From contig ML978126.1 of assembly GCA_010015805.1 (NCBI GenBank), positions 186,001-250,000 of the forward strand: 64,000 bases of DNA, given 5' to 3'. Shown here piece after piece: positions 1,166-43,560 of this stretch. The DNA comes from Rhizodiscina lignyota. Taxonomy: Eukaryota. The notes beneath the pieces are model-generated. The model ran no database searches and was not told the DNA's origin. It saw only the letters and a program-made list of their open reading frames with translations. Position 1 is the first letter of the stretch. Every line of letters starts with the position of its first letter. A program made the position numbers and the translations under genes.

Positions 1166-2712
1166 TCAATACACCGAGCACTCAACGCTGGCCCTCAAAA
1201 ACGCCTCAGAGAAGAAGCGCTGCATCGCGGCAAAGTGAAACAGGATGCCCCCGATGACCGCCAGATGCCACAGGTTGTGGCTGCTGCCCACAAAGTCCGT
1301 GATTCCGCCGGGACACCAGCGCTCGGGGATTTTCGCCGCGTAAATGCACGCACCGGAAACGTACACGACAAGGCTCATCGTGATGGGGGAGTAGAAGTGC
1401 CACGCCCACGTGATGCCCCGCGTGTGCACGAGCTGGGCGACTGGGAGGAAGCCGGTGCAGGCAAGAGTGACGTAGAAGCCTACTCTCGCCCAGCTCATGT
1501 CCGCACGGTTGAAAGTGGGGTTCCATGGTAATACACATCCGGCAACGGAGAAGAATCCAGTGGTCAGGAGGTATACCCACCGGCTGACTGGCTCGCAGTA
1601 AAACGCGCAGTATTCGGTCGTCATGATTGAAGCGCCGACAAGGAGCGAGATGCCAGTGTAGTCGACGCAGGCGAAGCGTTCCATGAGCGATTGCTCGGAT
1701 ATCGAGTTGAAGGTGTGCCACATGATGCTGCAGACGAGGCACTTGCAAGCTGCGAAGAAGAAGACAGCGGCGATGAAGACGTCGGAGCGCGTTGAGATGC
1801 TGAAGTTTGCGGAGGTGGGGTAGAAGTAGAAGGCCACGGCCAGGACGACGATAAGGCCAATCGCGTGAGTCCATATGTTGAGCAGTTCGTTGTGCACCCC
1901 AAACACGGACCAAAGGCACTCAACCTTTTTGGAGTGGAAGCGGTAGCCGCGCATGATGTGGGGATTGATTCTCCACGGGACGGGTATCTCGTCGAGGTTG
2001 AGAAGCCCACGCTCTCTAGCAAGCTGCAGTGCCCGCTCGATTCCATACTCAATTCCTCCGACCATGTGCTCCTTGGCCCTTCTTGCCTTCTCTATACCTC
2101 CATCGAACGCCTCTCGTGCTTTGTCCATACTCTTGTCCATGCGGCGCAATCCCTCATTCATGAAGCTCATGTGCGAGTCCCTGAGCGCGTATGCCCTGGT
2201 TTCGAAGTCTGCAAGCATGCCCTCCATGAGCCTCACGCCCTCTTGCACCTTATGCTCAAGCGTCTCCCTCCTCGCGACCGCATCGTTATATCGCTCCTCC
2301 AACGTCTCGACTAGGATGTTCGCTCGCCTCCGTCCAGCATCCCACACGCCATCCGAGACGCGGTTGCATGACTCTCGCACCGCATGCAGCGTCGAGTACG
2401 CGCGGTCAATACTCACGTCGAAGTTAAGGTGGCCGTAAGAATCGAGGAAGTCCAGTCGTCGTCCCAACTCCGCGAGGAATCGATCGACCTGCGCATTGTT
2501 AGCTGCTACGTCATTGCAACACAACGAGACGTTCTTACCAGCACTTGCACATTATCCGTCTCCAGATTCCACTGGCCGGCATGATAGCTGCTGTGTCGCC
2601 GTCTCCTCAACTCTGCCCTCTCCTTTTGCGCGGCACGCGAGCTGCTCGTGGTGCCCAGCGCAGGCTCCTCGTACGGCTCCATGAGCACGGAACCGACCGT
2701 GCACGACATCAT
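1166..2712 (-). CDS. IZH3: PAQR/HlyIII-family 7-TM protein, Izh3-like
   Basis: Motifs PWRINPHIMRGYR, HNELLNIWTH, VDYTGIS, PERWCPG and SSHNLWH. Exon 1 (MSCTVG..VQVL) is joined to VDRFLAEL by a GTAAGA..GCTAAC..CAG intron. Confidence 0.9.
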
Positions 2713-3437
2713 AGCTGTTCCCCTTCCTCAGATGGGCGAGCGGCCGCCGTTTAAGAGTCGACGGCGGAAGTCACGAGCCTGATGACGTTCTGAGGCAATT
2801 TGGGTTTTTGGAGAAAGGAAGGCGCTTTTTCGGAGCTGGGCGGAGGGAGGCGTGGGAACGAGCGAAGGTTAAGCTTAAACGCTGACAAGTCGCTGCCCAA
2901 TGCCGCCGATCGCTGCTCCCGGAAATTAGAGGCGGCGCGCCAAGGTGCGGCTGGATGGCTGGGAGGATGCTTGAGGTGAGGTCAATTGAGACAGCCAGGT
3001 CGGTAAGGACTGGATTTGAGGAGAAAGCAAAAGTAAAAGTACAGTGAGCGCCAGGGCTGTGGGTGGGCACGTTGAGAGAGCATGAGGCGAACACGTCGAC
3101 GATCATGCGTCTAGGCGCAGCATGGCCAAGAGCGGCGGCTCCAAGTGACCCTGAGCATCTGCCGCATGTGGCGGAGTGCTGCCTCTTATTGGTGGCATTC
3201 CATGTCTGTGGACGTCTGATCACTTCAAATACATACGGAGGCATGCTTTGTCTTGATTCTGAAGTCGAATGAAGGAGCTCATGCAACAATGCCGCAAAAC
3301 GGCCATTGAATGCTTCTGAAGGATACAGCCGTGTCCGCCCATTCGGTCTCACCTCATACTAATGTCACAATTGCCCTTGAAAAGAAAACGCCGCAGCCCA
3401 CGTAGAATACATCAGACAGCCCATTGAGTAGACACTA

Positions 3438-6400
3438 TCAAGCGTCACCCATAATCTCATCTTCATCAGAGCCATCAACGTCATCTAGCTCCTCATCAGC
3501 TTCATCCCCCTCCTCAGGCGGAAGACTACTCCTTCCCTCCAAATCCATCCCATCACCGTCTCTGTCGCCATCGCCATCCATATCTCTATCAGCCTCACTA
3601 TCGTCACCAGCGTCGTCGCCCTCCTCCACAGTGTCGACAACCCTGTCTTCAGGATCCGGCCTCTTCTTTCTTACAACCTCCAGTCCGTGCTCCCACCTGT
3701 CGAGCCTCCTGCGCATTCTCGAGAATGCCTGGCGATACGTGTGAACCTGCTCTCCACTATCGTCCACCTTGTCAAAGTCCTGATAGACCGGGATTCCCTC
3801 AACAAGTCTGAATCCAGCGAAGCCCCTGTACGGAATCGCGTTCGTCATGCCCTCCTGCCTCTGCACCAGACTGATATGCAATTCTTCCTCCGAGTCGAAT
3901 CCATCCGGCAGCATGCGAACCTGCTTCCACGTACGTGCCATTGCGCCCTCCCTAGTGCGACGAGACCTGGCAGACTTGTGTTTGCTCTCCAATTTTTTGT
4001 GAAGTAGGTACTCAACGCGCTTCTTGCGGAACTGCTCAACCGCAATCTGATGCGCAGTCAGAGGGCGGGTGCGCTTGTGCGACGGCTCAGAGCCATTAAG
4101 CGGTAGATAGAAGCCATGAGGCCCTGTTGCCGAGTTTGCCGCGGGTGCAGCGGGACCAGTACTTGCCGCCGGTGAGGCGACATCCATTCCGGCGGCCTGG
4201 CGCTGCTTCTGGAGGGTTGCATTCGCCGCAGCAGCCGCTTCGCGCTTGGCTTTGGACCAGTTGCCTCGTCCAAGTTTGATGGGTGCAAGGGGAGTGGATC
4301 CAGTCGCAGGTGGAGGTGGTGGCCCAGATGGTGTTTCGTCGTTGAGAAGCTTTTCGATACGCATGCCTCCAGGCGTGCTCTTGGGCACAAGCGTCGAACC
4401 ATGCGGCTGCGGGCTCATGGATCGTGTCTGGTCGCTGTCCGTGTGGTATTCCTCGCCTTTGATGTGAACATGCTGTCGTCGGCCGCGGTTGCTTACAGAT
4501 GTCGAGCCTATGGAAGAGATGTCAGCCTGGTTTCGTTACTCATCTCAACATGGTAATCTACCTGTCATAGAAGGGGCTGGGGATTGCCCTTGATCTGGAA
4601 TTGGCGATGCTGCCCCTTCACTTTCCACGACTGAGAAGACTGGGTTGTTAGTGAAGCCTGATGTGATGTCAGTTACGTCATGTTTTGCCTTGTCACTCTC
4701 GCAATGAAAGGCTGCTGCGGGCGCGGCTTGAGGTTCATCCATGGGTGAATGTTGTGGTAAGTCTCTGTTCAGCCGTCGCGTCTTCGATAGATATTGGCTT
4801 TTCCTAACTGGAAGTTTTGCAACACGTTCTTCTAGGTTGTCACTCTCGCAACGAGAGACTGGTGCGGGCGTGGCTTGAGGTTCGACCATGGCTAGGGGTT
4901 GTGTTAAATCTCTTTCCGGCCATCTCCGCTGCGGCGTATCTGGGCCTTTCGTAATGTGTTCATCCAGCCAGTGGTTACGCATGTCAAAGAATGTCTGATA
5001 GTGCCTCCCGCAAACGCAGCAGATAAGTCGTTGTTTGGTTTCTCCTGGTAGTGGAGGTTCAGCTTTATGGCCGTGGAACGCGATAAAATGATCCTCCAAT
5101 TCGAGTCTCCCAGAAAAATTCTGATATTGGGGGCATTGCCAGCAAATGTAGATCGGGAGGAAGGAGGTCCGGTGGATTGCGGCTAGGTTCACCCAATTTC
5201 GCGATTCCAGGACAGGAGGTGATATCCCATGATATCCACGGTAATGTCCAGCGAAGGTCGGTTGGGATTTATAGGTTCGTGGTGGGAGGCAATTCCGGCA
5301 AACATAAACCTCTTTGAGATTGTCCTTTTCATGCCGCGCCCATTAGCCCGAGTAACAGAAAATGCAACTTACCGCTTCGTTTGACTCCACGCTTTGGACC
5401 AGTGACAACTGGTGCCAGTGCGTCACTTGCCAGAATATCTGCAAATCAGAGTCACTATTGAGTCCCAAGAACAATATTATCGAAAACGTACTTATCCTCT
5501 CCTGCCTCTTAACCTCCCCAAACTGCTTCTCCTCTTCCGTGTCAACATTCTCTGCCGCGGCCTGCTCATCCGTCAAAATATCAAACTGCGGCGTCTTGAT
5601 CGACATATCTCCGGGGCCGGCGTTCTCGCCCTTTCTGCCTGGCCCGTAAGGGTTGTTGAGCGCGTCGTGCTCGCTAAAGTCGCTCTCGAGGTACCACCAC
5701 ATGAGCCACAAGAAGGCTGTCGCGCGGCTGCGGCTGCTCAGCCCGCTCTTCATCACCAGGTCGAAGAAGTCACGCGGCACGTCGAAGTGCATCTCGGAGA
5801 TCTTGGGAGCGTACTGCGACAGCACGAAGATGAGGTTTACGGGATTGGTGCGTGGGACGGGCGCGGTGCGGATGTCCTCTAGTGTCGAGGGCTGCTCCGA
5901 GTCTTCGGTGGCGCCCTTGAGGATGGATTTTAGGCGAGGAGCGTCTTGGAGCTGCTTGTATGCGTTGGGATCTTGCTGTGCTTGGAGGGAGGGAATGGAG
6001 TGGTACGTTCGAAGCTGGGCGCGCATCTCCGGGAAGACTGCGATGTGCTCAATTCCATGCCGATTCTTTGAGGAGGGTGATGCTTACAGTTGAGAGTGGT
6101 ATTCATCCTGCCCACGTTGACAAGCAGGCAGACCATCGCCATATTGATGGCGGCGGAGCGCTCCGTCAGCAGCTTGTCCTTCAGAATCTTGCTGCACTTG
6201 CTGCTCTTGGCCATGGCATCCAGATAGATGTCCGCAAAGGTATGTCCCTTGCTGCTATCTGAGACCTTGGTGAAGGCCTTCTTGTCATCCTCGAAGACAT
6301 ATTTCAGGAAGTCGTATTGAATATCCTTCCGCCAAAGTGGTACTCCATCTTCCTTCTTCAGATGCCTTATCTTGTTCCCCGAGTACACACTCGATACGCT

Positions 6401-6736
6401 CCCATTCGCATTGCGCCTCGTCGTGGTCGTCGTGCTCGTGTAGTGAGGTTGCTCCCCTCCGCTGCCCCCATCCCTGGGTGAGGGCGCATCGCTGGGAACG
6501 TCGTCGTAGAGATGCGAAAGATTGGGATTCGCCTTGCGCTTCGGCATTTCCAGCAGTGCAGCGACCGCCTCTTCTTCTTGTGAGATTTCCTGCGCCAAAT
6601 TTCGTTCTGGCGCTGGAGGAGTCTCTTGTTGCGGCGGTGAGGGCTCTGTTAGGACATGGCGGATGGAGTTTCGCGGGTCAGCCTCGCGTTGTGACAAAGG
6701 AGTATGAGACGTGTTCTGCTCCATTGTCTCAGCCAT
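3438..6736 (-). CDS. IES1: INO80 chromatin-remodelling complex subunit Ies1
   Basis: KIRHLKKEDGVPLWRKDIQYDFL, NVGRMNTTLNF, MRAQLRTYHSIPSLQ, FLWLMWWYLES and an acidic C-terminus. Multi-exon; the donor at 5372 joins the acceptor at 4508 in frame. Confidence 0.9.
4562..5311 (-). other. Putative cassette exon (250 codons) with three C2H2-like zinc fingers inside IES1
   Basis: Stop-free reading frame, same strand and frame as the last IES1 exon. Motifs CRNC-x14-H-x4-H, CWQC-x14-H-x4-H and CCVC-x12-H-x4-H. Flanked by intron-like segments 5312-5372 and 4508-4561. Confidence 0.6.
4690..4925 (-). repeat. Diverged tandem duplication with a 147-bp period
   Basis: RDLTQPLAMVEPQATPAPVSRCESD vs RDLPQHSPMDEPQAAPAAAFHCESD; matching nucleotides at 4879 and 4732. 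Confidence 0.75.
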
Positions 6737-7950
6737 AGCTTCCTAGCGCGGGCTCCCGCGCACGAATTGACGATATGTGAAATCAATGGCGATGGGGGAT
6801 GGATGCTCTCATGGGCTCTGCGAAGGAAGTTGGAAGCTGGCAAAATTGGCATCGCAAGATATCCGGATGCGCTTGCAGCGTAACTGCTAGTGCGCCGCCG
6901 ATTTCCATTTTCCATAGGGCTGAACGCGAAAGTGATCTCGGCTGTTCGATTGGCCCAGCTCAGCCTATTCTCCCCAGCGATATTTACAACTGGTCCATAG
7001 AAATTATAACGCTGGCACAGCGGTTAAGATAGGAATTCAAGCGTCTCACATGCAATTGGGAAATTCGATAAAGAGGCAATCAATTGGCCAAAGCAAAATT
7101 TTCTTGATTTCTATCAATCCCAGTGCCTAGAAAGGCAAAAGTTAACTTTTTTGGTGGATCCCTTCACCCAGATCAACAGTGCCACCAGCAAGCCAGACGC
7201 TCCTCATGCATGATATCCACTGAAGCCTCAGTTATGCACGGCACCTGCCGAATGCAGAGGCCGATTCTATAGCTGAAGCAGAATGAGGCTTTGTGAAGCC
7301 CATGATAGAACGCCACGAGTGCCAGAAAAAACATCTCCAGATGCAGCCCGCCATTCCCATAAATGCCGCGCTGCAAAGACTCCCAGTGCACGCTGCAAGC
7401 GCACCAGGAGACATGACCGAGATGAGAGGATCGCTTTTGTTGTGTCGTAACGAGTCGAATTTTGAAAAAACCCCCCAGCTGAGACAATTTGAGCAAAAAA
7501 AGCAGGAAGTAGAAGATCGTCGGCAGTCGAAAGCCGGTGAATCAAGTCTATGGTTTATGCAAGTCCCCCCAAGCAGCAATTCTTCGAGGCGCACGGGCGT
7601 ATACAGTCGTGAATTAGAGTCTTCCAGGCCATACGCGCTGATGGCCTTGGAAAACGCATTGTGTGCGCAGTCTAGGACTCGCCGGATAACTTTTCGTCAA
7701 GCCATCCGCGAGTGTGATGCCGAAGAACCCAGAGGAAATATCAACGCTATCTATATGCTGATCGGGGTATGAGAGCAAGTGCCGGACTTTCGAAAGACTG
7801 CCGAATCCAGATGTGAAACAGAGCAGAGCCAAACCGAACCGAACCGATGAAAGAAAAAGCATTCGAACGCAATCTATGAGTAGAAAGAAAATTAGCAGTA
7901 TGACGCTTGCCAGACGTGCCCAATACGAGCATTCCGAGAAGTAGGTGGAT

Positions 7951-10144
<2,194 letters not shown>

Positions 10145-41492: not shown

Positions 41493-42369
41493 TTTCCCCG
41501 CATCGTTCTCGGCTTGGGTTTCGTTCGTGGCGTCTGGCTTAGAAGCATCCGCACGCACGTGCTGCGTGCATCATGACTTTTTAGATGTTTTAGTACAAGA
41601 TACTCCACTTCGTTCGTGTCGATATTAGCAACATACCCGCTCTGGTAATGCATCGGGTTCTCGTCTGGTTGGGTCTGCGGAGGATCGCTTGTGGTTGGCT
41701 GGCCGCCTGCAGCGCTGTTGCTCACCTCGAAGCGCCCTGGGGGTAAGATATCCAGCAGTATAGCGCTAGAACTGTATGAATAGGACGGTAATCCATAGAG
41801 TATACCAGAACTAGAGACCAAATATTCAGCACGGCAGTGAGAAAGCTCAGCCTTTCTACGTATTCGTCAATAGGATACCGAGGACACCGAGGAGCCATCG
41901 AATCTTAAATCCCAACAGGGGCGGCGATCAGTTTGAGTGGGCGTGGATGAACAAATTAAACGTCTAGTTGACTGCTCTGCGCCACGGACGCCGCTAAATT
42001 AAAAGGCTTTTTGAAAGTGTATGACCCGCACGCTGAGGGAGACGACCGTATGTACACGACACGCCGTGCTCACTGGTAAACCCAACCCGCCCATTAGATT
42101 CCCCTCGTATCGTATCGAGAACTGAAGCAACCGTCGCCCAAATGCCGTACACGAACGATATCATGTACTCCGCTTTGCCATCGCCAGGATTTTTCGCGTC
42201 TCCGCCGTAGTAGCCGCTCGTGATACAGACCTCAGAAATCACCCGCCGCGAATGTTGACCCGCATGCCGCTCGCCGCGACTAGTGTCGCGTGCCAAAAAC
42301 GAGACCTAAAAGAGAGAAAAAGAAAAGTCTCAGCCCCCGAAGGTAAACCAGAAAAAGCCCACAACAGCA

Positions 42370-43560
42370 TTATTTGTTGCGGAGACCGAAATACAGACCC
42401 AATACGAGCGCGAGGATGCAGATGATGAGCACGCAGATGCCCAGGCACCACCACTTGAGCTTGCGCGCGTTGCGCGCGCTCTTGATGCCCTTTGTCAGCT
42501 GCACGTTCGCCGCCTCCGTGTCGCCCTTGACTTGCGCCGTCTGCTCCTCCGCGGCCTGCACCGCCGGCTCCTGGATCACGACCGCCTCGGCGAGGTCGCT
42601 GAAGAGCTGGTTCAGCTCGATGAGCGTCTTCTCGATCTGCTGGATGTCTCGGTGGCGCGCGCGGACGGCGCCGAGCACCGACGAGGCGTGGCCGGAGCGG
42701 TTCGATTTGAGCTGTAATCGAGTTGTTAGCTGCTGTTCTCAATTCTCGAGTGGTGTGCTTGGGGCTTGATAGAATCAAGTGCTCACCGCGGTCTGGAAAA
42801 CGCCCTCGTTGCCCCAGTCCGCATCTGCTGCCTCGTCCACCTCGTCGTCGGTCGCCTCCGGGTTGACAATCTTGTACTGGCGCTTGATCTGGTCGCGGTA
42901 CCGCTGGCCGTACTCCTGCTCCTCCTTGCGGAACTGCTCGAGCTGGTTCTTGAAGCTGTTCTTCAGGCTGCGCACCTGGCTGTCCTTGGTCGAGTTGCCG
43001 GGCGAGCGCTTCGAGTCGACCTCGAGCGCGCGGATCTCGTCTTTTATGCGCGTGTTCAGGATCTGCGTGTTCGTCGTCACGCTCTCCAGCTGGCCCGACG
43101 CGCCGCTGTCCGGCGAGCTGAAGACGCGCTGGTGGATCGTCGCGATCGACGACACCTGCGACGAGAGGTTGTTGATCTCCTGCCGGACCGCTTCGACGCG
43201 CGCGAGGAAGTCCTGGTTGCTCATGGGCGCGCCGCGTGGTGCCTGGACGACGGCCGTGTTCTGGTGGGTGACGGGGGCGGAGTAGTTGGATTGCGAGTAG
43301 GCGGAGGTCTGCTGGGAGAGGCCGCCCTGCGGCTCTGGCGCACCTAATGTTTGTCCCTGAAGCTCTAATTAGAGATCGATCGAGTCCCTGTGCAGTCCAG
43401 CTGCTCCGCTGTGAGTTTCAGGCGGACATACTTGACCTCCATATGGATTCTCGCTGGCATAGGGATTGCCGCCGTACTGGCCGTACGACTCTTGCCGCGA
43501 CTGTCCGTACTGCGCCTGAGGTGGCTGGTCGCCATATGGATTTTGTTGACCGTAAGACAT
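42370..43560 (-). CDS. SSO1: Plasma-membrane syntaxin (Qa-SNARE) Sso1/2
   Basis: Habc helices, RQYKIVNPEAT, SNARE motif RARHRDIQQIEKTLIELNQLF, KSARNARKLKWWC and a C-terminal TM; two introns. Confidence 0.93.

Follow-up and report, generated by a model that had tools for sequence, protein, structure and literature searches.

The 64,000-nucleotide window analysed here (positions 186,001 to 250,000 of contig ML978126.1 from Rhizodiscina lignyota; all coordinates below count from its first letter) carries on its minus strand, from 6736 to 3438, a gene that by sequence comparison encodes the INO80 chromatin-remodeller subunit Ies1. Our subject is the third intron of this gene, within which lies an open frame bearing three zinc-finger patterns. 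The annotated protein (P0001, 726 amino acids, "Ino eighty subunit 1" in UniRef) matches the window with 100% identity over the common exons. It has 1246 homologues at E ≤ 1e-3 (8000 candidates scored), the best non-self match reaching E 2.5e-244 with 61% identity and 88% query coverage. The protein collection gives PF27809.1, precomputed, for P0001 and for every listed orthologue; our local Pfam copy gave no family for P0001 or its exons. An earlier note on this DNA, which had also called the gene Ies1, had drawn an 865-nt interval from a donor at 5372 (G|GTAAGT) to an acceptor at 4508 (ATAG|GC), with an inner segment of 750 nt (5311-4562) in phase 1 at both ends, and these coordinates were confirmed on the sequence. 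The features of the locus are collected in Table 1.

Table 1. Features of the Ies1 gene and of its third intron, in window coordinates.
Feature	Position	Strand	Description and basis
Ies1 coding region	3438..6736	-	ATG at 6736, stop TGA 3440-3438; alignment to orthologues
Ortholog-matching model, 809 aa, five exons	6736-6088, 6037-5492, 5438-5373, 4657-4562, 4507-3438	-	Orthologue alignment
Exon 3, 66 nt, phase 1	5373..5438	-	Ends in ...TGPKRGVKRS plus first base of split codon; GPKRxxKK block kept in orthologues
Long intron 3, 715 nt	4658..5372	-	Donor GTAAGT 5372-5367, branch CTGAC 4672-4668, acceptor CAG 4660-4658
Proximal mini-intron for finger inclusion, 61 nt	5312..5372	-	Donor GTAAGT, branch-like CTAAT 5346-5342, acceptor AAG 5314-5312
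Inverted repeat, 5' arm, 13 nt, GC-rich	5329..5341	-	Pairs with 4731-4719, 12/13 bases; just past proximal branch motif
Species-specific segment, 654 nt, 218 codons	4658..5311	-	Stop-free in Ies1 frame; no ATG before fingers
Finger pattern 1, C-x2-C-x14-H-x4-H	5229..5300	-	CRNCLPPRTYKSQPTFAGHYRGYH; regular expression, no Pfam hit
Finger pattern 2, C-x2-C-x14-H-x4-H	5073..5144	-	CWQCPQYQNFSGRLELEDHFIAFH; regular expression, no Pfam hit
Finger pattern 3, C-x2-C-x12-H-x4-H	4956..5021	-	CCVCGRHYQTFFDMRNHWLDEH; regular expression, Pfam zf-C2H2_4 sub-threshold
Tandem duplication, period 147 nt (49 codons)	4690..4954	-	Copy A 4954-4837, copy B 4807-4690; z 24.6 against 500 shuffles
Inverted repeat, 3' arm	4719..4731	-	59-73 nt upstream of distal acceptor
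Mini-exon 4, 96 nt, phase 1 at both ends	4562..4657	-	G-FTNNPVFSVVESEGAASPIPDQGQSPAPSMT-G; block in 28/28 aligned orthologues
Intron 4, 54 nt	4508..4561	-	Donor GTAGAT, branch CTGAC 4525-4521, acceptor TAG 4510-4508

To place the exons around intron 3, gene models were aligned first with 28 orthologues and then with 13. At this place the orthologues read GPKRGIKKG-FTNNPVFSVASDDGS...QSPAP. Joining base 5373 to base 4657 keeps the frame and gives KRS-G-FTNNP, against KKG-FTNNP in the orthologues, with one extra residue, and the resulting product of 809 amino acids aligns to the orthologues across the junction. Once the 715 nt of the intron are removed, the alignment with Ies1 of Aulographum hederae (P0002, the nearest relative, 61% identity) and of other Dothideomycetes runs over the full length, and the GPKRxxKK / FxxNPVFSV junction is common to both sides. 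The acceptor used in this join lies 11 nt past the branch A of its CTGAC motif. These alignments make 5373>4657 the well-supported ortholog-matching junction, and exon 4 a well-supported conserved mini-exon of Ies1. In a library-wide HMMER search, the tail encoded by this mini-exon was the only part of the 750-nt segment to match an Ies1 orthologue (P0026, query 217-248). Intron 4, proposed in the earlier note, is supported by the fact that reading through it meets a stop and by the alignment of GSTSVSNRGRR, directly after 4507, to GTSVRSARGGK of the nearest orthologue.

The 3' ends of the distal form of intron 3 and of intron 4 (4660-4672 and 4513-4525) have CTGACATC...AG|GC in common, at a spacing of 147 nt. 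This likeness looks like a chance similarity of two branch-site regions. Exon 4 with intron 4 was also tried as a third unit of the 147-nt repeat listed in Table 1 and rejected, with alignment z scores of 0.1 and 0.8 against shuffles.

We then compared the intron positions with the DNA of relatives, using 80 loci that encode Ies1 relatives and that come from a metagenome contig scan. Both flanks of the intron-3 site were present in 22 loci; judged from the spacing of high-scoring segment pairs, 15 of them have an interval of at least 49 nt and 7 are contiguous (0-18 nt), and the contiguous loci L001 and L005 have no intron anywhere and may be cDNA. The interval is at most about 210 nt in all 22, against 715 nt in the window. 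It was read base by base in 12 loci, several of which are near-duplicates from different samples and so represent fewer species: 10 have phase-1 G|GT...YAG introns (46, 46, 51, 51, 52, 56, 123, 142, 209 and 210 nt) and 2 have none. At the intron-4 position, 14 loci have about 50 extra nt (179-213 nt) compared with 132-144 nt in 4 contiguous loci. Both flanking intron positions of the window's gene recur in many related loci. The position of intron 3, after GPKRxxKK and in phase 1, is well supported as ancestral by these comparisons, and because relatives' loci have introns at both positions, the arrangement of a 96-nt exon between two introns is ancestral as well.

Ies1 genes vary in whether they have the intron at the GPKRxxKK/F site: it is absent from the contiguous loci L018, L021, L069, L070 and L071 and present in L006-L015, L050-L064 and L075. 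L069, L070 and L071 retain the gap of intron 1, yet are contiguous here, and L021 and L070 are also uninterrupted at the intron-4 site, which suggests that neighbouring introns of Ies1 were lost in some lineages. The annotated Ies1 of Lophiotrema nucula (P0010) has a 23-residue insertion (GECALPATRSCEPKWPSNKPTV) after GPKRTNKK, exactly at the common intron position, and the insertion starts with G-E-C, like the translation of a G|GTGAGTGC donor. Judged from the protein alone, it is probably an unspliced intron in the annotation.

The species-specific segment between the proximal acceptor and exon 4 belongs to a same-strand open frame of 265 codons (5342-4545) without a stop, in which a regular expression found the three C2H2-like patterns that the earlier note had reported. 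This finger frame has no in-frame ATG before the fingers, and its first methionine comes after finger 3. Because no ATG lies ahead of the fingers, they would be translatable only as a part of Ies1. The opposite strand of the intron has only frames of up to 76 codons. In 20000 shuffles of the 217-residue peptide, two or more finger patterns occurred in none and one pattern in 147, and only 1 of 20000 shuffles of the bases of the segment stayed open over an equal length. The score for host codon usage was highest in the Ies1 frame of the segment (0.019, the other five frames ranging from -0.19 to -0.47). Finger 3 fits the classical spacing C-x2-4-C-x12-H-x3-5-H, while fingers 1 and 2 have x14; finger 3 is 37-43% identical to fingers in a C2H2 protein from a fly.

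The duplication of 49 amino acids claimed by the earlier note was recovered at the DNA level with its 147-nt spacing (Table 1). Tandem Repeats Finder reported no repeat at a score of at least 30. The two copies compare over 118 nt with 30 differences and no insertion or deletion; 16 of the differences are transitions and 14 are transversions, a proportion on which repeat-induced point mutation was rejected as the cause of their divergence. The last 30 nt of copy A were also considered as a decayed distal branch site and acceptor, and this candidate was rejected because 165 of 2000 shuffles score as well. If the duplication diverged in place, the divergence per copy is about 0.155 per site. In neutral simulations at this value, the frame remained open in 2.5% of the runs, all 12 zinc ligands were kept in 1.1%, and both in 0.03%; at 0.05 per site, an open frame together with all 12 ligands was kept in 6%. 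These neutral-decay simulations favour selection on the frame.

Searches for the segment outside this gene pointed to one lineage, as the earlier note had supposed for the finger frame. The finger pattern occurs in 0 of 120 listed Ies1 proteins, and the region takes up 108-153 residues in 59 of 59 orthologues but 350 in the model that includes the fingers. The named relatives were compared by their annotated proteins only; such proteins may hide an insert that is spliced out, so these counts are a weak test and the DNA loci a better one. In the 80 related Ies1 loci the segment is absent (best tblastn E 0.87). Against 1.84 billion representative proteins, HMMER gave 4 matches at E ≤ 1e-3, none of them a real homologue: a C2H2 protein of a fly (P0122), an unnamed finger protein (P0123), an LPXTG cell wall anchor protein of no finger family in which only the proline-rich tail was aligned (P0121), and an Ies1 orthologue in which only the conserved tail just past the segment was aligned (P0026). 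A sequence search of the PDB gave one weak match to a generic C2H2 protein (E 0.094), and the ESM Atlas gave only generic C2H2 clusters, with recognition under the usual level.

Paralogues were searched for in the contigs of the DNA run (15746 records, 34.2 Mb) and in the 64-kb window. At 80% likeness or more, a single record fell on 2000-8000, covering the region in one piece and without joints, and no second copy of the segment was found within the window. Because a single contig covers the region, neither a recent donor copy nor a repeat family exists at this level of likeness. Among the repeats found at the intron there was no terminal repeat and no target-site duplication. Altogether, it is well supported by the sequence comparisons that a single-copy, in-frame finger frame without a real homologue lies between the donor and exon 4.

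Whether these fingers could enter the protein depends on the 3' splice site that is used with donor 5372. The acceptors at 5312 and 4658 are 654 nt apart, and both products (1027 and 809 amino acids) have a terminal stop only. Between the upstream stop (TAA 5345-5343, within the CTAAT motif) and finger 1, only position 5312 offers an AG in frame, so that a product with all three fingers could be made through this acceptor alone. Splicing to the AAG at 5325 shifts the frame, as the earlier note had stated, and meets a stop after 18 codons. The inverted repeat listed in Table 1 forms a predicted stem in both the minimum free energy and the centroid folds of the intron, and its pairing would loop out 597 nt including the three fingers.

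The explanation that we prefer, at somewhat less than an even bet, is an optional finger isoform of Ies1 made through the proximal acceptor. In this lineage, the segment would have been inserted into the old intron or at its edge, and selection would have held the finger frame open. The fingers would reach the protein only if the spliceosome took the weak AAG at 5312, with its 61-nt intron, over the distal CAG. This would be an alternative 3' splice-site choice and not exon skipping, and it would lengthen a poorly conserved linker of Ies1 by 218 residues, three fingers among them. The 13-nt stem across the long intron may favour the distal site by making the long intron act as a short one, and use of the nearer AAG at 5325 would yield a frameshifted, prematurely stopped transcript. 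In its most far-reaching form, to which we assign a probability of roughly 0.35, this INO80 subunit would have gained an optional three-finger module from an insertion in an ancestral intron that turned coding, with a stem-biased use of the proximal (weak) or the distal (strong) 3' splice site deciding whether Ies1 carries the fingers. Domain gain by way of an intron would then have been caught in a single lineage of a filamentous fungus, which would be a rare case.

Several observations weigh against this explanation. The dN/dS ratio of nonsynonymous to synonymous change between the duplicated copies is 1.32, thus without purifying selection, and the differences fall 14/11/5 on the first, second and third codon positions, with the third showing the fewest. 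The selection argument presumes divergence in place; if the copies diverged in a donor gene, the insert may be young and unselected. No finger reached the Pfam gathering threshold for C2H2 (PF00096 / PF13894): finger 3 scored 18.3 bits with zf-C2H2_4 (E 0.0037), under the cut-off of 27, and fingers 1 and 2 gave no Pfam match at E ≤ 10. The codon score of the segment is below that of the real exons (0.12-0.25), and its third-position GC of 0.47 is below that of Ies1 exons 1, 2 and 5 (0.59-0.78). A single-sequence AlphaFold2 prediction was uninformative, with a mean predicted local distance difference test (pLDDT) score of 35 and a low-confidence strand-strand-helix at fingers 2 and 3. The proximal acceptor reads AAG, a non-YAG site, while 10 of 10 intron-3 acceptors of relatives and the four other Ies1 acceptors are YAG, and the out-of-frame AAG 5327-5325 is closer to the branch, 18 nt from the branch A. 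As for the stem, a similar pair occurred in 0 of 300 shuffles of the two intron ends, but this test was post hoc, and over its full length the intron folds no better than its shuffles (z -0.71).

In a rival reading the segment would be a mere passenger, a fragment of a zinc-finger gene that recently entered the old intron, is always spliced out with the 715 nt and is never translated, its open frame and in-frame position being leftovers and coincidence. In its favour, a strong branch site and a strong CAG mark the distal end and their product fits the orthologues, the weak proximal acceptor competes with an out-of-frame AAG, the duplicated tail evolves in a neutral-like manner, the codon score is barely positive, no orthologue has the segment, and the public annotation is without fingers. 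Still, a donor copy at 80% likeness or more is missing from the 34.2 Mb of contigs and a homologue from the 1.84 billion representative proteins, so that the donor would have to be lost or foreign. Moreover, after a neutral divergence of 5% just 6% of the simulated copies retain the open frame and the 12 ligands, and the shared strand, the frame match at both ends and the single in-frame AG before finger 1 would all have to be coincidences. We consider this alternative unlikely, and the most serious of the rivals.

A constitutive insertion, in which the 61-nt intron (5372-5312) alone is removed, Ies1 always carries the 218-residue insert, and the distal CAG and its branch site are relics without a use, appears considerably less probable. 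A length of 61 nt fits the other short introns of the gene (50-54 nt) and the counterparts of intron 3 in relatives (46-210 nt), among which 715 nt would be exceptional, and the open frame, the intact ligands and the lack of a start codon of its own agree with permanent inclusion. Against it, the AAG acceptor has a nearer, frameshifting AAG, CTGAC stands 11 nt ahead of a CAG exactly at the start of the orthologous exon, the stem spans the ends of the long intron, and the rest of the gene has better codon usage.

The cassette exon of the earlier note, a unit of 750 nt that two short introns would bring in and the junction 5373>4507 would leave out, is very improbable. Its sites are present as described and neither form shifts the frame, skipping giving 777 and inclusion 1027 amino acids with a terminal stop only, so that the claim of a continuous Ies1 after skipping holds for the frame. 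The skipped form is incomplete, however: the FTNNPVFSV...QSPAPS block falls within the proposed exon in the alignment of the 28 orthologues, and skipping deletes these 32 codons, which are kept in 28 of 28. An in-frame CAG acceptor with a branch site (4660-4658) lies between the two proposed sites and had been missed, and the optional unit is the 654 nt of 5311-4658, not 750 nt. A nested gene, mobile element or introner with its own expression would account for a long open frame with finger patterns within an intron but is scarcely credible, since no in-frame ATG precedes the fingers and the first methionine follows finger 3, the frames of the opposite strand do not exceed 76 codons, the segment is single-copy at 80% likeness or more, and no terminal repeat or target-site duplication was among the repeats found.

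The optional 3' splice site proposed for Ies1 can be set beside several known arrangements. Exitrons, described in the plant and human literature, are internal, protein-coding introns with a length that is a multiple of three. Like alternative 3' sites and exitrons, the locus has one donor with two in-frame acceptors, and its optional coding part is a multiple of three. In exitrons, however, the optional part is a piece of an ancestral exon, whereas the proposed one here is a foreign-looking insertion in an old intron. No fungal case was among the titles listed in a literature search for exitrons. In Saccharomyces, self-complementarity within introns aids the splicing of long ones. Similarly, a GC-rich stem runs here from about 30 nt past the donor to about 60 nt before the acceptor and would leave an effective intron of about 100 nt; unlike the yeast stems, it is predicted only and its rarity was tested post hoc. 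The introner-like elements of Dothideomycetes are multi-copy and non-coding. The locus resembles them as an unusually long intron in a Dothideomycete gene, and differs in that the segment is single-copy at 80% likeness or more and has a frame of 218 codons.

Zinc fingers are already attached to INO80 by other subunits. In Neurospora, IEC-1 is a separate C2H2 subunit of INO80 (PMC5406019). Iec1, IEC-1 and YY1-type subunits resemble the arrangement proposed here in that their C2H2 fingers, attached to INO80, are thought to guide the complex to DNA. They differ in being separate polypeptides, while the fingers here would lie within Ies1 and gave only generic finger matches in the library-wide search. 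That Ies1 could bring fingers to the INO80 complex is plausible by this analogy, which is not evidence for the locus itself. A literature search on Ies1, INO80 and zinc fingers returned nothing on fingers in Ies1 in titles and the beginnings of abstracts, and passages of PMC13623949 agree with this.

If the fingers are translated, an intron would have given a conserved remodeller subunit, in a single step, a module for binding nucleic acid or protein, with the old protein left undisturbed, and a fungus with introns of mostly about 50 nt would have a regulated 3' splice-site choice over 654 nt. Without translation of the fingers, the locus still corrects a public gene model and shows that a long, intact, coding-like frame can occupy a fungal intron, which is relevant for gene prediction.

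From the alignments, the public gene model of Ies1 looks wrong at three places. It begins at Met64 (MPKRKANPNL), and the in-frame ATG upstream at 6736 adds 63 residues, which fit the orthologue consensus (R..EPD.R.SLRH.LA..P). It takes a weak donor GTGGAG at 5390, through which GVKRS is lost, and it pairs a GTTGAG donor (4549) with an AAG acceptor (4457), losing the STSVSNRGRRQHVHIKG stretch that can be aligned to Aulographum hederae. The finger segment is omitted from it. According to passages of the Rhizodiscina genome paper, the annotation was made with the pipeline of the Joint Genome Institute (JGI) (PMC7082219).

Elsewhere in the window, a minus-strand frame of 392 codons at 42242-43417 is stop-free and has GC contents of 0.85, 0.60 and 0.43 at codon positions 1, 2 and 3. 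Two reading frames tie there at a codon score of 0.16, and it differs from the other long frames of the window. It may be low-complexity sequence or a wrong frame.

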